Assembly (NCBI GenBank): GCA_964602455.1
Contig: CAZRRG010000006.1
Span: 1 to 41,515, forward strand
Origin: an uncultured Eubacteriales bacterium
Lineage (GTDB): Bacteria > Bacillota > Sulfobacillia > Fermentithermobacillales > Fermentithermobacillaceae
DNA: 41,515 nucleotides
Direction of reading: 5' to 3'
Shown piece after piece: positions 32,362 to 39,490 of this stretch. A program made the position numbers and the translations under genes. Under the pieces are notes generated by a model. It saw only the letters and a list, made by a program, of their open reading frames with translations. It was not told the DNA's origin and ran no database searches. How positions within the stretch are numbered: position 1 is the stretch's first letter; each line of letters begins with the position of its first letter.

Positions 32362-32919
32362 CTAAGCTTTCGTGTGCAGGGGCTTGCAGATCAGCTCCAG
32401 GACCTCTGTGTCGAACACGGTCTTGGAGTGCGAGGGCACAATGACCAGCGCCGTGTCGGCGCCTCCACCCGAGCCCCCAACCGAGATGACCGGTTTTCCG
32501 TAGGGGATCAGGCCGGCGTCAAGCGCCATGACTGCTATCTCGACAGCCACTTTGGTTCCTTGCGAGAACATGCGCAGCGCCGCAGACATAACCCCACCAG
32601 TATACAGGCCGCCTTGCTGTTGGGTGACTGCCCTTTCCACGTTCCCGAAGAGGTGCGTAGTTGTCAGGACTTCTGCGCCGGCCTGCTTGAGCTCGCTGCG
32701 GGCCGCGGGACCCATCTCGTCCATGCCGGGCTCTTTGAAGCCGACCTGGTGGGTAACGCAGACGACCTTCAGTCCTTTGCCCAGGAAATGCCGGGCGGTG
32801 AATCCGGTGTTGGAAGCGACCACGACATGGTCGATCCCGAGTTCCTTTGCTCTCTCGATCGCCAGGCGCGCCGTTTCCGCAGTATTCTCCCTGCCACGCT
32901 TGTCAAAGTACACTGTCAC
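32362..32919 (-). CDS. Pyruvate kinase C-terminal (alpha/beta) domain-like protein
   Basis: GTG follows AGGAGGG (8-nt spacing). Sequence: MTVYFDKRGRENTAETARLAIERAKELGIDHVVVASNTGFTA ... ISVGGSGGGADTALV. Family assignment is from memory. Confidence 0.65.
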   Translation of the reverse strand: MTVYFDKRGRENTAETARLAIERAKELGIDHVVVASNTGFTARHFLGKGLKVVCVTHQVGFKEPGMDEMGPAARSELKQAGAEVLTTTHLFGNVERAVTQQQGGLYTGGVMSAALRMFSQGTKVAVEIAVMALDAGLIPYGKPVISVGGSGGGADTALVIVPSHSKTVFDTEVLELICKPLHTKA

Positions 32920-32965
32920 GAGAGATCCCTCCTGGGTCTTAAGTGGTTGTCTCTACCAGCATATC

Positions 32966-34912
32966 CTATCCGGGCTTCGACTCAAGCCCGGTTCTGGGCT
33001 GAAGAAGCGCTCGCTCGCGGTGAAGCTCGCGGACGTCCCAATGGCGTTTCTCGTAGATCTGGAAGGCCCTGCGTTCCATGAATGCCGCCTGCTGCGGGTC
33101 GCCTATCTCGTTGTACATGTCCGATAACCACAGCGCTGCAAGCGCTAACTCCCGTTCCGCCTCTTCCCGCTGGAAGATGTCAACGGCCCTGCGGCCGTGC
33201 TCTATGGCCTGGCCCTGCCTGCTGTGGGCGCGGCTCAAGCACCCGCGGATAAGGCTTACCCATCCCTTCTCAAGGGCGGACTTCTCCTCCAAGAGCGGCT
33301 CGGCCGCGCTGATCATACGTGTGGTCTCTTCGTATTCACCTTCTCGGAGCGCGGCTTTGGCCAACTCGATGCTTGCATAGGCTGAGTAGAGCTTCATATC
33401 GAGCTCCCAGTATCCATCGCGGGCCATAGCCAGGTACTCTTTTGCCGCCTTCTGGTTGTCCTCGCGGTACATGAGTTTGCCTATGTTCACCCACACCAAC
33501 ACCAGGTGGCGCTTGGAGCCTTCTGATTTGGCAAGCGCGTCTTCAAAGTGGGTTCTGGCGGCTTTCCAGTTCCTGCGGCGGAGCTCGATGAGACCCATCC
33601 CAATAGGTATCATCATGTTCAGGGTGCCCAGGTCCTGCCCGCTTCTTCCGGCAGCCCAGCGGCGTGCTTGGCGAATCGTGTTTTCGGCTTCGTCCAGTCT
33701 CTCCGCCTCAAGAAGCGTGGAGATCAGGTTTCCCAGAAGGTTTCCGTGGTTGACGTCGTCAAGCTCAGTCACTTTGAGTCCCCTGCGGTACCAGTCGATC
33801 GCCGCATCCGGATCGTGTTGGCCCAACATGTATCCCATCATGATGCAGACGTAACCCACTGAACGCGGTTTCCCCATCTCCTGGATGATCCTGCAGGCGT
33901 AACTGCCAAACTCATTGGCCGCATCGAAGTCTCCCGCAGCTCCCAGGCACTTCGCCGCTTCCGCCAGACAGTTGCTCCGGCGCGTTGGCTCATCGAGGAT
34001 AGCTGACATAATGGACGCCCTGTGCCAGGTCTCGGCAGCATCTTTCCACAACCCTAGGGACTCCAGTAGCCTAGCGGCCTTTTCTAGATGCTCAAGGGCC
34101 TCCCTATTCTTGCCCGCGTGTATCAGGTGCTCAGCAACACGCTTCTCGAAGAAAGGTCCTTCATCGGGTAGCGCGACCATTGCAGAAGCGAGTGTCGCAT
34201 GGAGGTCCCGAAGCTTAGCCAGAGTGAATACGGATGAGACTTGCATGGAGACTCCGTGTACACTCGTCCGCTGGACTCCGGCGTCGTCCCTGACGATTAC
34301 AAGAGACCTGGCTACCAGTTTATCCGTCATTAGGTCAAACTCGGTCCTCTCAAGGGTAGACGCTGCCCTGACCCAGTCCAACCGGGCATCATCACCAGCC
34401 AGAACATACAGGGCCAGAAGGGCCATCTCATGCTCCGAGAGGGGCTCCTCCGCGTGTGTTCGCCGGACGTCCGGCCTGCCGGACCTAGCCATGTCAGACA
34501 GCACTGTTTGCAGGAATGCCCTAACGACACGGGACTCCCTGTCACTGAGGCTGGATAGGGCAACATAGAAGGACGGGCGCGCATGGTGCAAGTTGGTTGC
34601 GGATAGGAATGTTTCAACGAGCCGCGCAGTTTCTTTCCGGTCAGGATCCTCGATGAAAACCGGCGCTTGCTCGCTTGCCACTGAAGCTCCCAGATCCTCT
34701 GAGTACAAATGGGAGAGGCTGAGGTTCAAGTATGATGCTATGCGGTCCTTGTACTCGTCATTGAGGTTCTTCCGAGTGCCGTTCAGCACAAGTGATAGAT
34801 AGGACTCCGATAGCCCGATCCTCTCGGCTAGGTCTTTGATGCGGATGTTCCGCTGTGCAAGTATGGTCTTTACGTTCCGGCAGAAGACCTCGACTGAAGC
34901 CACGGAACCCAC
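32966..34912 (-). CDS. XRE-family HTH transcriptional regulator with a central winged-helix-like segment and a long C-terminal TPR region (648 aa)
   Basis: The N-terminal HTH is KTILAQRNIRIKDLAERIGLSESYLSLVLNGTRKN. The C-terminal ~350 aa consist of TPR-like helix pairs (ALEHLEKAARLLESLGLWKDAAETWHRAS, AIDWYRRGLKV, ARTHFEDALAKSE and others). No P-loop was seen. Confidence 0.85.
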   Translation of the reverse strand: MGSVASVEVFCRNVKTILAQRNIRIKDLAERIGLSESYLSLVLNGTRKNLNDEYKDRIASYLNLSLSHLYSEDLGASVASEQAPVFIEDPDRKETARLVETFLSATNLHHARPSFYVALSSLSDRESRVVRAFLQTVLSDMARSGRPDVRRTHAEEPLSEHEMALLALYVLAGDDARLDWVRAASTLERTEFDLMTDKLVARSLVIVRDDAGVQRTSVHGVSMQVSSVFTLAKLRDLHATLASAMVALPDEGPFFEKRVAEHLIHAGKNREALEHLEKAARLLESLGLWKDAAETWHRASIMSAILDEPTRRSNCLAEAAKCLGAAGDFDAANEFGSYACRIIQEMGKPRSVGYVCIMMGYMLGQHDPDAAIDWYRRGLKVTELDDVNHGNLLGNLISTLLEAERLDEAENTIRQARRWAAGRSGQDLGTLNMMIPIGMGLIELRRRNWKAARTHFEDALAKSEGSKRHLVLVWVNIGKLMYREDNQKAAKEYLAMARDGYWELDMKLYSAYASIELAKAALREGEYEETTRMISAAEPLLEEKSALEKGWVSLIRGCLSRAHSRQGQAIEHGRRAVDIFQREEAERELALAALWLSDMYNEIGDPQQAAFMERRAFQIYEKRHWDVRELHRERALLQPRTGLESKPG

Positions 34913-34926
34913 CTTGGCCTTTCCGG

Positions 34927-34965
34927 CAAAAGAAAAACGCCGGGAGCTTTACTTCGCTCCCGGCC
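34927..34965 (-). terminator. Intrinsic terminator between the small peptide gene and the regulator
   Basis: Minus-strand RNA: GCCGGGAGC-GAAGUAAA-GCUCCCGGC, followed by G-UUUUUCUUUU. Confidence 0.75.
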
Positions 34966-34977
34966 TCGGAATACCTG

Positions 34978-35196
34978 TTAGCCTCTGCCGATGCTGTTGT
35001 TGACCGGCGGCCAAATGGTAGGTGGAACGTCACCAGGTCCTGCGATGACCGGAGAAGTGCTGTTGTTGACTGGCGGCCACACCGTGGGCGGAACATCGCC
35101 CGGGCCGGCGAGCGCCGGACCAATGACGTCAACAACAATGGCTCCGAACCCAAACAGGAACGCTACGACGAGAAGCAACGCGACCAACTTCTTCAC
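34978..35196 (-). CDS. Small exported pre-peptide (72 aa) with two tandem copies of GPGDVPPT[VI]WPPVNNS
   Basis: GTG at 35196 lies 6 nt after GGGAGGTG; the ORF-track start at 35205 overlaps that RBS. The peptide has a KK n-region, an LVALLLVVAFLFGFGAIVV h-region and a GPALA (AxA-like) c-region. The two 20-codon repeats (35059-35118 and 34993-35052) differ by 9 synonymous and 3 conservative changes. Confidence 0.75.
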   Translation of the reverse strand: MKKLVALLLVVAFLFGFGAIVVDVIGPALAGPGDVPPTVWPPVNNSTSPVIAGPGDVPPTIWPPVNNSIGRG

Positions 35197-35269
35197 TCTC
35201 GGCACCTCCCACTATTCTGGTAGAAATGAGGGTTTGGACAACGCAGTCTGTATATGTCGAGGGCTCCCT

Positions 35270-35299
35270 AAAAAAGGGGGGCAGCATCCCTGCTGCCCC
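35270..35299 (-). terminator. Intrinsic terminator on the minus strand, upstream of the peptide gene
   Basis: Minus-strand RNA: GGGGCAGCA-GGGA-UGCUGCCCC, then CC-UUUUUU (9-bp stem at 35278-35286 / 35291-35299, A run at 35270-35275 on the plus strand). Confidence 0.75.
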
Positions 35300-35424
35300 T
35301 GAAGGTGATACCGGCTGAGCACTCGCGCGTTGTTTGGGCACGACAGGATTCTGGCGACTAATGGCCGATTCCTGTGGGAAGGCCTAGCGGATAGACCCAA
35401 TAATTGGGTGCAGCGAGTGGCGGT

Positions 35425-35490
35425 TTATCTCACAGCAAACTGAAACAGGCCTAATCGGAGAAATCCGCATATCGGTTTGCTGAGAGATAA
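35425..35490. other. Long imperfect hairpin in an ORF-free region (strand unresolved)
   Basis: TTATCTCACAGCAAAC (35425-35440) pairs with GTTTGCTGAGAGATAA (35475-35490), 15 of 16 positions, and extends about 2 bp further inward. The ~28-nt loop contains a small CGGAGAAATCCG hairpin. Confidence 0.6.
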
Positions 35491-35652
35491 TGCCGACGGC
35501 GTTTGGAGCCACCATCGGAGCGGAAGATCCTCGAAAATATGCTGTCAGTTAAACTCGACCTGATCGCGATCCCAGCATAAGTGGTAATTGCGGTACTCAA
35601 TCCCTGTATAAGGGCCCCGTATGCTTGAGAGGGTTCCGGCCCAACAGCACGA

Positions 35653-36522
35653 ATGGTATTCTATAGAGGTAAGAAAGGGCGTGAAGGGCCTTTGCTCGAG
35701 GGTCTCCTCGGCTTTCTCAAGGACTTTAGGTTGCCGGACATAATCCGGATTCCCTTAGACGTCGCTATTGTGGCGTACCTCTTCTACAGAGTGTTCGTCC
35801 TTATTAGAGGCACAAGGGCAGTGCAGCTATTGGAGGGCATCGCCCTCCTGTTCCTCTTCATTGCCGTGACCGACTGGCTGGGTCTTGACACGATGAACTA
35901 CCTCCTGGTGCGACTCGGTGACGCGCTTGCGCTCGCTCTGCCGGTCGTGTTCCACCAGGAGATCCGCAGGGTGCTTGAGCAGATAGGGCGTGGCGGCAGC
36001 ATTATGACCCGGACTCTGTTCAGCGGTTCCGTCTTCACCTCTGAGAAGGTGATCGGCGAGATCGTGGAGGCGGTTGGCCACATGTCGTCAGTCAAGACGG
36101 GAGCTCTGATCGTGATCGAGAGGGCATCGGGACTAGAAGAGTACATGGATGATGCGGTCTCCCTCGATGCGGCTGTGAGTTCGGAGCTGCTCGAGAACAT
36201 CTTCTTCAAGAACTCTCCGCTTCACGACGGGGCGGTCATCATAAGAGGCGATAGGGTAGCCGCGGCGGCCTGCTTCTTGCCCTCAACGCAAGAGGCCGTC
36301 ACCGTGGAACTTGGCTCACGGCACAGGGCCGCTCTCGGGGTGACCCAGGTGTCAGACGCCATCGCCATAGCTGCGTCGGAGGAAACCGGGACCATCTCGC
36401 TTGCCGTAGGAGGAAGACTGTTGCGGGGCCTCGATCTTGCAACCCTCAAAGAGAAGCTGGTTGATCTCTTGCAGGTCCGGCAGTCGGTCCCCCAGTTCTT
36501 TAACCGGGGGGCGGGGAAATGA
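35653..36522 (+). CDS. cdaA: Diadenylate cyclase CdaA (DacA)
   Basis: N-terminal TM helices and a DAC domain (LHDGAVIIRGDRVAAAACFLP, GSRHRAALG, ISLAVGG). The start is uncertain: ATG at 35653 lacks a clear RBS, and TTG at 35692 is an alternative. Confidence 0.9.
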   Translation: MVFYRGKKGREGPLLEGLLGFLKDFRLPDIIRIPLDVAIVAYLFYRVFVLIRGTRAVQLLEGIALLFLFIAVTDWLGLDTMNYLLVRLGDALALALPVVFHQEIRRVLEQIGRGGSIMTRTLFSGSVFTSEKVIGEIVEAVGHMSSVKTGALIVIERASGLEEYMDDAVSLDAAVSSELLENIFFKNSPLHDGAVIIRGDRVAAAACFLPSTQEAVTVELGSRHRAALGVTQVSDAIAIAASEETGTISLAVGGRLLRGLDLATLKEKLVDLLQVRQSVPQFFNRGAGK

Positions 36523-39143: not shown

Positions 39144-39177
39144 CGCGTGGGGCGGCAGCACGGCAAGAGTACCAAAA

Positions 39178-39322
39178 ACAGCGCCTGGACTTTCCGGCTA
39201 CAGGCCGGGAAGTTGACGAGGATGGGGGAATTCGAAAGATTCGGCGGGTCCCCCACGGTTTGCCACAACCGACAGAGGTCCTTCAAAACCTTCGGGTGAC
39301 CGAAGAACAATAAGGGCCGGGT
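39178..39322 (+). ncRNA. glmS ribozyme (GlcN6P-activated self-cleaving leader)
   Basis: Cleavage-site context A/GCGCC lies at 39179-39184. The conserved core is GAAGUUGACGAGGAUGGGGGAAUUCGAAAGAUUCGGCGGGUCCCCCACGG. The peripheral helix is GGUCCUUCAAAACCUUCGGGUGACCGAAGAACAAUAAGGGCC. It lies immediately upstream of glmS. The 3' boundary is approximate. Confidence 0.9.
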
Positions 39323-39490
39323 GGTTGCCACGCACACTAGCCTTACTTCTCACAGATTATCTACACCATTGGCACCTTGCGCGCATTGGGTCTCTTCATC
39401 CTTTTGGCCCTGTACCAGCCCGACCGGCTCTATCTGCTCAGCAGCATCTGTTTACCGTGGAGAGACTAGATCGCGAAGGGAGCAAACATC

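Follow-up and report, generated by a model that had tools for sequence, protein, structure and literature searches.

Cytoplasmic-receptor peptide quorum sensing of the RRNPPA type has a published signature, comprising a propeptide of 10-100 aa, a receptor of 250-500 aa with tetratricopeptide repeats (TPRs), adjacency of the two genes, and export through Sec or PptAB (Bernard et al. 2023; PMC10075063). Location of the propeptide gene upstream of its receptor and tandem copies are both documented for such systems (PMC9765709, PMC11343458); the Rap-Phr systems of phages phi3T and phi105, for example, contain tandemly duplicated Phr propeptides (Felipe-Ruiz et al. 2024; PMC11343458). Here, we analyze a locus of an uncultured Eubacteriales bacterium (assembly GCA_964602455.1, contig CAZRRG010000006.1; the whole 41,515-nt stretch analyzed is referred to as the window), in which a gene for a small, putatively exported peptide with two tandem units lies directly upstream of a gene for a large regulator with an XRE-type helix-turn-helix (HTH) domain and TPRs. 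Judged from its sequence, the system appears to be a new form of the peptide quorum sensing known from Gram-positive bacteria. A small propeptide, TPRs, and gene adjacency were all found, and Sec export is plausible, but the receptor, at 645-648 aa, falls outside the length range of the signature. An earlier note on this DNA had proposed an RRNPP-like signalling pair. The functional tie between peptide and regulator that it implied has gained support, from 25 loci, from the tracking of peptide types with regulator clades, and from propeptide genes downstream of regulator relatives in loci L145 and L146, while membership in RRNPP is not established. The upstream position and the duplicated unit, which the note considered unusual, are less so in view of the RRNPPA examples cited above (PMC9765709, PMC11343458). 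The module consists of the following features.

35658..35685, minus strand: sigma-70-like promoter match TTCACG-16-TAGAAT (promoter scan), overlapping the first codons of the divergent cdaA gene
35270..35561, minus strand: conserved RNA-like element, core of ~292 nt ending in terminator T1 (motif spacing, alignment, and covariance model)
35270..35299, minus strand: intrinsic terminator T1, GGGGCAGCAGGGATGCTGCCCC followed by CCTTTTTT, hairpin at 35299..35278 (terminator scan), the 3' end of the element
35210..35203, minus strand: Shine-Dalgarno sequence GGGAGGTG of the peptide gene, 6 nt before the GTG start (read directly)
35196..34978, minus strand: peptide gene, an open reading frame (ORF) with a GTG start and 72 aa (ORF listing and sequence reading)
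35118..35059, minus strand: unit 1, P-x-[LI]-A-GPGDVPPT[VI]WPPVNNS, 20 codons
35052..34993, minus strand: unit 2, P-x-[LI]-A-GPGDVPPT[VI]WPPVNNS, 20 codons
34928..34964, minus strand: intrinsic terminator T2, GCCGGGAGC..GCTCCCGGC followed by GTTTTTCTTTT, scan hairpin at 34964..34939 (terminator scan), between the peptide gene and the regulator
34903..32966 (from 34912 if 648 aa), minus strand: regulator gene, 645 aa (Pfam, AlphaFold2, and Foldseek)

The module is kept in 25 loci, with regulators down to 35% identity to that of the window, and its order is constant: an element of ~295 nt ending in T1, the peptide gene, T2 (detected in 16 of 21 loci scanned), and the regulator. Sixteen genome loci were obtained from 38 regulator homologues, the closed genome of Ca. 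Fermentithermobacillus carboniphilus, a member of a class-level candidate lineage, being included; metagenome loci were added after. The earlier note had suggested looking for the peptide gene beside orthologous regulators in related genomes. It was kept in every locus with enough upstream sequence (the L013 contig ends 404 nt upstream of the regulator and is uninformative on this point), always as a small ORF directly upstream, and the encoded products have a start rich in K/R, followed by a hydrophobic core and by 1-4 tandem Pro-rich units. The two genes are adjacent in all loci; the gap in the window is 65-74 nt. At least five different genomic neighbourhoods carry the module. Their flanking genes are given below, with W denoting the clade of the window and F a second regulator clade.

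W and F clades: cdaA-cdaR-glmM-glmS on one side; PK_C-GPI-rapZ-yvcK-whiA on the other side
L014: Sir2; aminotransferase/SpoIVA
L020: NYN-domain gene; S9 peptidase
L143: FMN_bind; aminotransferase
L142: acetyltransferases; aminotransferase

The flanks are housekeeping genes that depend on the clade, and the sole co-travellers of the peptide gene are the RNA-like element and the regulator. No transporter, immunity, modification, or protease genes travelled with the module at the loci examined, and the co-located modification, protease, and transport genes by which precursors of ribosomally synthesized and post-translationally modified peptides are recognized were absent from module loci. Neither the ~295-nt element nor the regulator was present in viral collections. 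A 17-mer scan of metagenomes for the element returned at least 120 stretches; among the matches listed, 116 were chance and four were real, one duplicating L004, one L014, and two being new. Because the order is kept while both flanks change, the pairing appears non-accidental, and element, peptide gene, and regulator are a unit of inheritance.

The Shine-Dalgarno sequence of the peptide gene sits ~60 nt past T1 on the minus strand. The 72-aa product reads MKKLVALLLVVAFLFGFGAIVVDVIGPALA / GPGDVPPTVWPPVNNS TSPVIA / GPGDVPPTIWPPVNNS IGRG and ends at 34978. Its N-terminus (residues 1-30) is signal-like, with an MKK n-region, a 19-residue hydrophobic core, and GPALA|GPG, where a cut is predicted at ALA|GPG; the Kyte-Doolittle mean is 3.03 over residues 4-22, and A-L-A|G, read by eye, stands at -3/-1. 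The minus-strand ORF with its strong ribosome-binding site, KK n-region, 19-residue core, and PALA site is present in the sequence just as had been described. The N-terminus is plausibly a Sec signal, a signal anchor being the alternative. Nearly all loci read have a Shine-Dalgarno sequence GGAGGTG 5-8 nt before the assigned start (variants being GGAGGTT in L020 and GGAGGTA, 6 nt upstream, in L142). A search with the window product matched eight further small proteins, one with two unit copies and the others with one. In these homologues (P0001-P0009) the leader MKKLVALLLVVAFLFGFG is identical or near-identical and the mature part is variable, built on GPGxxPPxVWPP; a near-invariant leader and a variable mature part are likewise found across related precursors. 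Precursor lengths across the family are 51-130 aa, with two multi-copy members exceeding 100 aa. A lipoprotein reading of the F-clade leader (VVAC) was rejected, the Cys being in the middle of the h-region and missing from other clades.

Codons 7-13 of the peptide gene (window 35178-35158, TTG CTT CTC GTC GTA GCG TTC) are nucleotide-invariant in five of the nine window-clade loci read, namely the window, L005, L002, L003 (bar one base), and L127 (bar one base). The regulators of these same five loci go down to 53% identity and synonymous sites elsewhere are saturated, which points to a constraint at the RNA or DNA level in the signal-peptide region. A weak hairpin was flagged by the scan at these codons in the window.

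The two units of the window differ at nine synonymous codons and three conservative replacement codons (A/V, L/I, V/I), 14 nt in total; the count of the earlier note for these 20-codon copies was reproduced exactly. All loci have precursors with 1-4 tandem Pro-rich units. Summed over 13 loci, adjacent within-gene copies have a synonymous difference (pS) of 0.46 and a replacement difference (pN) of 0.032, and for several copy pairs pS is 0.65-0.85 and pN 0-0.08, with zero or one amino acid change. Since such pairs are near synonymous saturation with almost no replacements, the unit duplications are old and each copy has been held to one peptide sequence. Purifying selection on the units, together with the homologues in related loci, bears out the proposal that the ORF is a real coding gene. 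Before every unit, the first included, lies a short hydrophobic stretch whose last residue is small, [IVLT]-x-[AGC]; examples of the junctions are ..GPALA|G, ..SPVIA|G, ..IIVVA|G, ..IIILA|D, and ..IITTC|D. The predicted signal-peptidase cut is a site of this kind too, and all copies would be released with the same N-terminus, (G/D)GP. Copy number shifts between close relatives (two in L016 versus one in L143; at least two in L017 versus one in L018). Four peptide types were found, and they track the regulator clades.

Clade W (window clade): GPGxxPPxVWPP
Clade F: ADGPxYPPPIVPPxPP
Clade D: GPxLPxPLPPVEDDPP
L020 and L142: CDDGPGIPIPIxPG

One metagenome-assembled genome contains two versions of the module (L007 and L019, on DUUV01000052.1 and DUUV01000023.1), with units AGGPLYPPPIVPPLEPP in three copies and DGPAYPRPIVPPMEPP in two copies, respectively. 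Each lies beside a cdaA start; the pair represents either a strain mixture in the bin or co-existing pherotypes.

The GTG at 34903 (645 aa) is a likelier start of the regulator than 34912 (648 aa), because it matches P0010 and the family N-terminus MASxExF. Pfam places HTH_3/HTH_26 at residues 15-68 and TPR_12, SNAP, and TPR_2 further on (TPR_12 E 1e-15). In the AlphaFold2 model (pLDDT 86.8, built on 29 homologues), the HTH occupies residues 1-70 in 648-aa numbering, followed by a helical segment (90-145), a winged helix of three helices and a beta-hairpin (160-218), and ~10 TPR helix pairs (231-635). The protein is predicted to be soluble and all-helical, with an XRE/SinR-like HTH spanning residues ~13-72 and a long, non-degenerate TPR solenoid. 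Among the invariant positions of the TPR domain are N395, R446-R447-N448-W449, N476, and Y482-R483-D485. Both Pfam and the model agree with the earlier description of a 648-aa XRE-HTH/TPR protein that has a winged-helix-like middle and is oversized for RRNPP, 645 aa being the likelier length. No ATPase domain (NB-ARC or AAA_16) was found in the regulator by Pfam or NCBIfam, and the modelled region between HTH and TPRs contains helices and the winged helix only. The 38 homologues are nearly all 635-659 aa long and all come from uncultured Bacillota, while among matches in a library of representatives full-length orthologues reach 676 aa. The family thus consists of ~640-aa proteins known only from uncultured Bacillota/Ca. 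Fermentithermobacillia.

Structure comparisons of the N-terminal 240 aa (Foldseek) superposed the HTH on SinR, C.BclI, and DdrO (TM-score 0.84; root-mean-square deviation 1.3-1.6 Å). Only the HTH found partners in this search, with no specific match to the winged helix, and a profile search with the same 240 aa returned same-family fragments and nothing else. For the full model, the best 50 PDB matches were generic TPR solenoids, including LGN/Pins with partner peptides, designed CTPRs, APC/C subunits, OGT, and a STAND-TPR protein; the leading natural ones, bar one chain of a Pol II elongation complex, were LGN/Pins TPR domains, many of them with partner peptides. When the profile was compared with PDB sequences, the Rap receptor 6t3h was the best natural match, with an E-value of 1e-8 over TPRs 3-7; bacterial kinesin-light-chain-like proteins ranked next, ahead of NprR (4gpk, E 2.6e-4) and RapJ (E 4e-4), and designed consensus TPRs outscored all of them. 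The NCBIfam AimR model matched the HTH only, with an E-value of 0.14.

Both minus-strand terminators that the earlier note had placed around the peptide gene were found by the scan. T1 is kept in all loci with compensatory changes (G-C to A-U and G-C to C-G). Loci of the W and F clades, as well as L020, L142, and L143, share a T2 stem of the CCGGGA/TCCCGG type, of which L014 has a variant. For W and F, the distance from the end of the T2 T-run to the regulator start is 16-25 nt, too short to accommodate a promoter, so that transcription of the regulator has to pass through T2. The idea of an insulated short transcription unit of its own for the peptide gene consequently has to be corrected: T1 closes the ~295-nt element of the module, and the regulator needs T2 read-through. 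Because the regulator is reached only through T2, we propose that peptide expression is high and receptor expression low. Measured from the peptide stop codon, T2 follows after 12-13 nt in the W clade but only after ~41 nt in F and >90 nt in L142, a variation that argues against a ribosome-coupled attenuator. A peptide-gene promoter TTGnCC-16-CAGAAT seen by eye is not claimed, as it went uncalled by the scan and is spaced differently from locus to locus. Downstream of the regulator, there is no terminator between its stop codon and the gene for a PK_C-domain protein (window 32919-32966), which starts 47 nt downstream with its own ribosome-binding site, and GPI-rapZ-yvcK-whiA continue on the same strand. 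The module may therefore be co-transcribed with PK_C-GPI-rapZ-yvcK-whiA in the window clade.

The region containing the ~295-nt element extends over 35270-35651 of the window (minus strand), and the same element is present in L002-L020, L065, L127, and L141-L144. It contains a 5' motif, GTCGAGTTTAAC..ATATTT (also given as GTCnnCTTTAAC..ATATTT), a long hairpin P2 (TTATCTCTCAGCAAAC / GTTTGCTGTGAGATAA), and the further conserved motifs CCACAGGAAT and GCCCAAACAACGCGCGAGTGCTCAGCCGGTATCACC, the latter holding an anti-Shine-Dalgarno-like CACCU. Wherever both the 5' motif and TCAGCCGG were located (16 loci), they are separated by 239-242 nt, and 23 of 24 extracted elements have a length of 292-301 nt (the L127 extraction, 341 nt, overran and was trimmed). 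Just 5' of T1 there is a near-invariant, anti-Shine-Dalgarno-like AUCCACCU, whose complement, AGGUGGAU, directly follows T1 in clade D. A covariance model (R1) built from 18 element copies gave exactly one full-length match per module locus, always on the peptide strand and with 120-272 bits (35574..35268 in the window). In 535 kb of unrelated metagenome DNA it had no match except L059, a second copy of module locus L004, and none was found next to distant regulator relatives.

P2 and T1 show compensatory changes and many G.U pairs on the peptide strand (A.C on the other strand). Their pairing amounts to 74-77%, compared with 39-58% in slid controls, and their covariation score to 0.20-0.24, compared with 0.14 or less; none of 500 shuffles reached the observed value. 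RNAalifold on a MAFFT alignment of the whole element recovered T1 and a small hairpin only. Column-shuffle z-scores of the body without T1 were -1.2, +0.9, and -1.4 for the peptide strand and -4.1, -2.0, and -1.2 for the opposite strand. Support for the fold is limited to P2 and T1, and the assignment of the element body to the peptide strand is tentative. At the gathering threshold, Rfam 15 matched glmS alone in the whole window, outside of the element, and at permissive E-values the element copies of the window and of three other loci had chance-level matches only. The element is a candidate new structured RNA, which may act as a separate small RNA, as a leader of the peptide mRNA, or otherwise. 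Several other readings were discarded. Neither strand contains a conserved ORF or reading frame, as would be expected of a coding element; the Rfam T-box model did not match either strand, in spite of a T-box-like GGTGATACCGGC on the reverse strand; no conserved complement to the T1 5' arm, as expected of a riboswitch-type antiterminator, was seen; and TTATACAG-like motifs flanking the element in the window clade, considered as operators, are not enriched in the window (15 found versus 9.5 expected).

The sigma-70-like match upstream is weak, with two sites found versus 1.4 expected. It is a candidate promoter of the element that would give a 5' extension of ~90 nt, and between it and the element core lies more hairpin-forming sequence, with stems that differ in related loci. 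In the W and F clades, this candidate promoter (window 35653-35690 region) overlaps the first codons of cdaA, the gene for c-di-AMP synthase; the promoter and 5' untranslated region of cdaA must therefore be inside the element on the other strand, and antisense or promoter interference between the two is possible.

A few neighbouring genes may be mentioned. In L020 (CP062796.1), a prolyl-oligopeptidase-family (Peptidase_S9) gene is located ~330 nt downstream of the regulator (L020:7257-8498), which is suggestive for the processing or degradation of Pro-rich peptides and was seen in this one context only. Within the window, secA is ~27 kb from the peptide gene, and a glmS ribozyme (39169-39328, plus strand; Rfam RF00234, 91.8 bits) precedes glmS, as expected for this operon.

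A profile search of the regulator family against 1.84 billion representatives yielded 27 at E <= 1e-30, indicating a small family. Beyond the close orthologues, there are more distant full-length relatives of 635-690 aa. Two of them, in L146 and L145 (E 1e-48 and 9e-63 against the family profile, respectively), have a Sec-type propeptide gene immediately downstream (L146:2127-2258; L145:4334-4462), the arrangement that is canonical for RRNPP systems. The L146 propeptide, MMRKLVLVLCLVFVLAGMAAPVYA|ATSVDPIWPTPPQVDPIWP with a cut at ..PVYA|, has what appears to be a textbook Sec-type signal followed by two VDPIWP copies; that of L145, ...ALGHGNA|SSSYQVAGEQWPTVSYVG, carries QWP and is followed by a terminator. 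Trp-Pro is common to both and to the peptides of the window clade. The regulators of L148 (4426-6908) and L150 (4780-7001) are followed by genes for an FtsX-type permease and an ABC ATPase (MacB-like), which may reflect a different export route or a different function.

Further out, thousands of TPR proteins of 900-3000 aa match the family profile. In many of those with 900-1100 aa the match starts at regulator residue ~145-150, so that the winged helix is included, and all nine such proteins scanned have an AAA_16 ATPase with TPR_12/TPR_MalT, that is, STAND architecture. The winged-helix segment LSEHEMALLALYVLAGDDARLDWV... (residues ~145-230; window ~34480-34220, minus strand) aligns with the segment that follows the AAA_16 ATPase. 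An hhalign comparison of the N-terminal profile with one STAND protein aligned the winged helices at a non-significant E of 0.6, and weak Pfam TPR_MalT matches occur in regulator orthologues. As a lead, the regulator could combine an XRE HTH with what remains of a STAND protein after loss of the NTPase, namely its winged helix and TPR sensor.

With moderate confidence, we propose that the peptide gene encodes an exported, multi-copy pro-pheromone whose product is imported and sensed by the TPR solenoid of the HTH regulator. The 72-aa precursor would be exported through Sec, and cuts after the hydrophobic stretches (VIGPALA|G, then SPVIA|G) would free two near-identical peptides, GPGDVPPT(V/I)WPPVNNS, perhaps trimmed further, which would build up outside the cell and then be re-imported. 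In the cytoplasm, the peptide would bind the groove of the ~10-TPR solenoid, changing the activity of the SinR-like HTH at promoters, probably including the module's own, while the peptide gene would be transcribed more strongly than the regulator, which is reached via T2 read-through. Export, cleavage sites, import, TPR binding, and target promoters are the steps that we infer. The long solenoid and the 17-22-aa units may well suit each other, by analogy with LGN-type solenoids, which bind long extended peptides. Several observations weigh against this proposal. The match between peptide types and regulator clades can be explained by shared descent alone, and an uncleaved signal anchor is possible, given the length and strong hydrophobicity of the h-region. 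Within the window, no oligopeptide permease was seen, and next to the regulator relatives in L147, L148, and L150 no Sec peptide is obvious. The best 50 Foldseek matches of the regulator include no RRNPP receptor; compared with RRNPPA clan B, the receptor is longer (645 aa versus 250-500 aa) and has an extra helical segment and a winged helix before its ~10 TPRs, and RRNPP pheromones are 5-10 aa long, as against 17-22 aa for the selected Pro/Trp-rich units of the module. The winged-helix and TPR part resembles STAND sensors, and known STAND sensors bind non-peptide ligands or proteins.

Some of these points would fit an arrangement in which the peptide is not the ligand but an output under the regulator's control, namely an exported or membrane- or wall-associated Pro-rich product (for instance an antimicrobial, a surface peptide, or a signal directed at a different receptor), and the TPRs sense something else. 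Conserved linkage alone cannot separate a ligand from a target; the STAND-like ancestry allows for non-peptide ligands, the long hydrophobic N-terminus could anchor in the membrane, and three distant relatives lack an adjacent peptide gene. We nevertheless consider an output role somewhat unlikely: the association survives deep divergence despite a flip to the receptor-then-propeptide order, the module is not accompanied by transporter, immunity, or modification genes, and clade-specific types with strict within-gene copy identity are what is expected if every copy must fit one receptor. The cleavage-like motif before every unit also speaks against an uncleaved, membrane-anchored precursor that holds and releases the regulator at the membrane with no re-import. 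The very hydrophobic, conserved signal-like segment, its nucleotide-invariant codons 7-13 in five of nine window-clade loci read, and the lack of an importer in the window are in line with such a partner, but the Pro-rich units of an N-in anchor would be extracytoplasmic, out of reach of cytoplasmic TPRs, with only MKK left inside, and we find this arrangement improbable.

A cis-acting function of the ORF deserves consideration because arrest peptides that combine an N-terminal signal or transmembrane segment with C-terminal Pro-containing motifs are known (PMC7897499, PMC10951233). Translation would pause on a poly-proline/AGP stretch, maybe until relieved by Sec pulling, as in SecM, MifM, or ApdA, and the paused ribosome would block T2 and thereby set the level of read-through into the regulator; the signal/transmembrane segment, the Pro motifs, the position of the terminator 12-13 nt past the stop codon in the window clade, and the promoterless regulator gene would all suit this scheme. 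It is hardly probable, however, given that the distance from stop codon to T2 varies (12-13, ~41, and >90 nt), that strong amino acid selection acts on all copies and not on the last alone, with copy number ranging from 1 to 4, that a RAPP-like motif is missing and the next gene encodes neither a Sec nor a YidC component, and that in L145 and L146 the peptide gene is downstream of the regulator. Very improbable, in our judgement, is a meaningless adjacency of a lineage-specific secreted protein and a housekeeping regulator. The lineage is narrow (uncultured Ca. Fermentithermobacillia and relatives) and synteny may persist by descent, but at least five neighbourhoods with changed genes on both sides preserve the three-part order, T2 is conserved along with its short distance from the regulator, and distant relatives again pair with a Sec-type peptide. 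Going beyond the pro-pheromone proposal, the module may form a new three-part circuit, in which a ~295-nt RNA with an exposed CCACCU serves as effector or regulatory arm (like RNAIII or aimX, though unrelated to them), next to a multi-copy pro-pheromone with long Pro-rich peptides and an XRE-HTH receptor derived from an NTPase-less STAND protein, be it of convergent origin or an RRNPP outgroup; we consider this fuller scheme quite unlikely.

If the pro-pheromone proposal is true, cytoplasmic-receptor peptide quorum sensing would extend to uncultured Bacillota of thermophilic, anaerobic-digester, and subsurface settings (Ca. Fermentithermobacillia and relatives), with a receptor architecture (HTH, winged helix, and ~10 TPRs in 645 aa) that is excluded by the 250-500 aa filter of the current detection tool. 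The origin of RRNPPA receptors was explicitly left open by a structural-phylogeny study of 2025 (PMC12700828), and the regulator is a candidate outgroup, or a case of independent origin, for them. Precursors that naturally range from 1 to 4 copies, with a cleavage-like junction for every copy, would offer material for studying precursor processing and copy identity, and the 295-nt element, which has no Rfam family and always accompanies the module, is a structured-RNA candidate in its own right. In the window clade, the module lies between the core operons cdaA-cdaR-glmM-glmS and rapZ-yvcK-whiA, a location that hints at a link of population signalling with cell-envelope, c-di-AMP, or developmental control.

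Among known systems, RRNPPA clan B (NprR-NprX, QssR, and Rap-Phr, with nine non-degenerate TPRs) is similar in having a cytoplasmic receptor that combines a TPR solenoid with an XRE-type HTH at its N-terminus, an adjacent small propeptide gene with a conserved leader and a variable mature part, and a chromosomal location in spore-forming Bacillota, and there is weak profile similarity to Rap and NprR. Besides the differences in receptor and peptide given above, the module departs from this clan in its ~295-nt RNA-like element and in a regulator that is read via terminator read-through from the peptide gene. It most likely works like an RRNPP system; we do not file it as a member of the family, because the receptor is outside the 250-500 aa range, its fold matches are generic, its matches to the Rap and NprR profiles are weak, and it bears a likeness to STAND proteins. 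Duplicated Phr propeptides, reportedly also described by Even-Tov et al. in 2016, similarly have several mature-peptide copies per precursor, a variable copy number, and extracellular processing at more than one site. In the module, by contrast, duplication is a lineage-wide rule with 1-4 copies that are protein-identical despite old synonymous divergence, each with its own signal-peptidase-like junction. The STAND AAA_16-TPR regulators (MalT/AfsR-like) have profile matches that begin at residue ~145-150 of the module regulator and so cover its winged helix and TPR sensor region, the winged-helix alignment being non-significant by itself, whereas the module regulator lacks the NTPase and has an XRE HTH at its N-terminus instead. 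Arrest peptides (SecM, MifM, VemP, and ApdA/ApcA/ApdP) are likewise small upstream ORFs with an N-terminal signal or transmembrane segment and Pro motifs; in the module, however, the downstream gene encodes a transcription factor and not Sec or YidC, RAPP and RGPP motifs are absent, the units are repeated and all selected, and the spacing to the downstream RNA structure is variable. Finally, arbitrium (aimR-aimP-aimX) and agr/RNAIII resemble the module, by analogy only, in the co-inheritance of a peptide gene, a receptor or regulator, and an RNA-like locus, while the module has the order RNA-peptide-regulator and an element, known from its sequence alone, that has no similarity to aimX or RNAIII.

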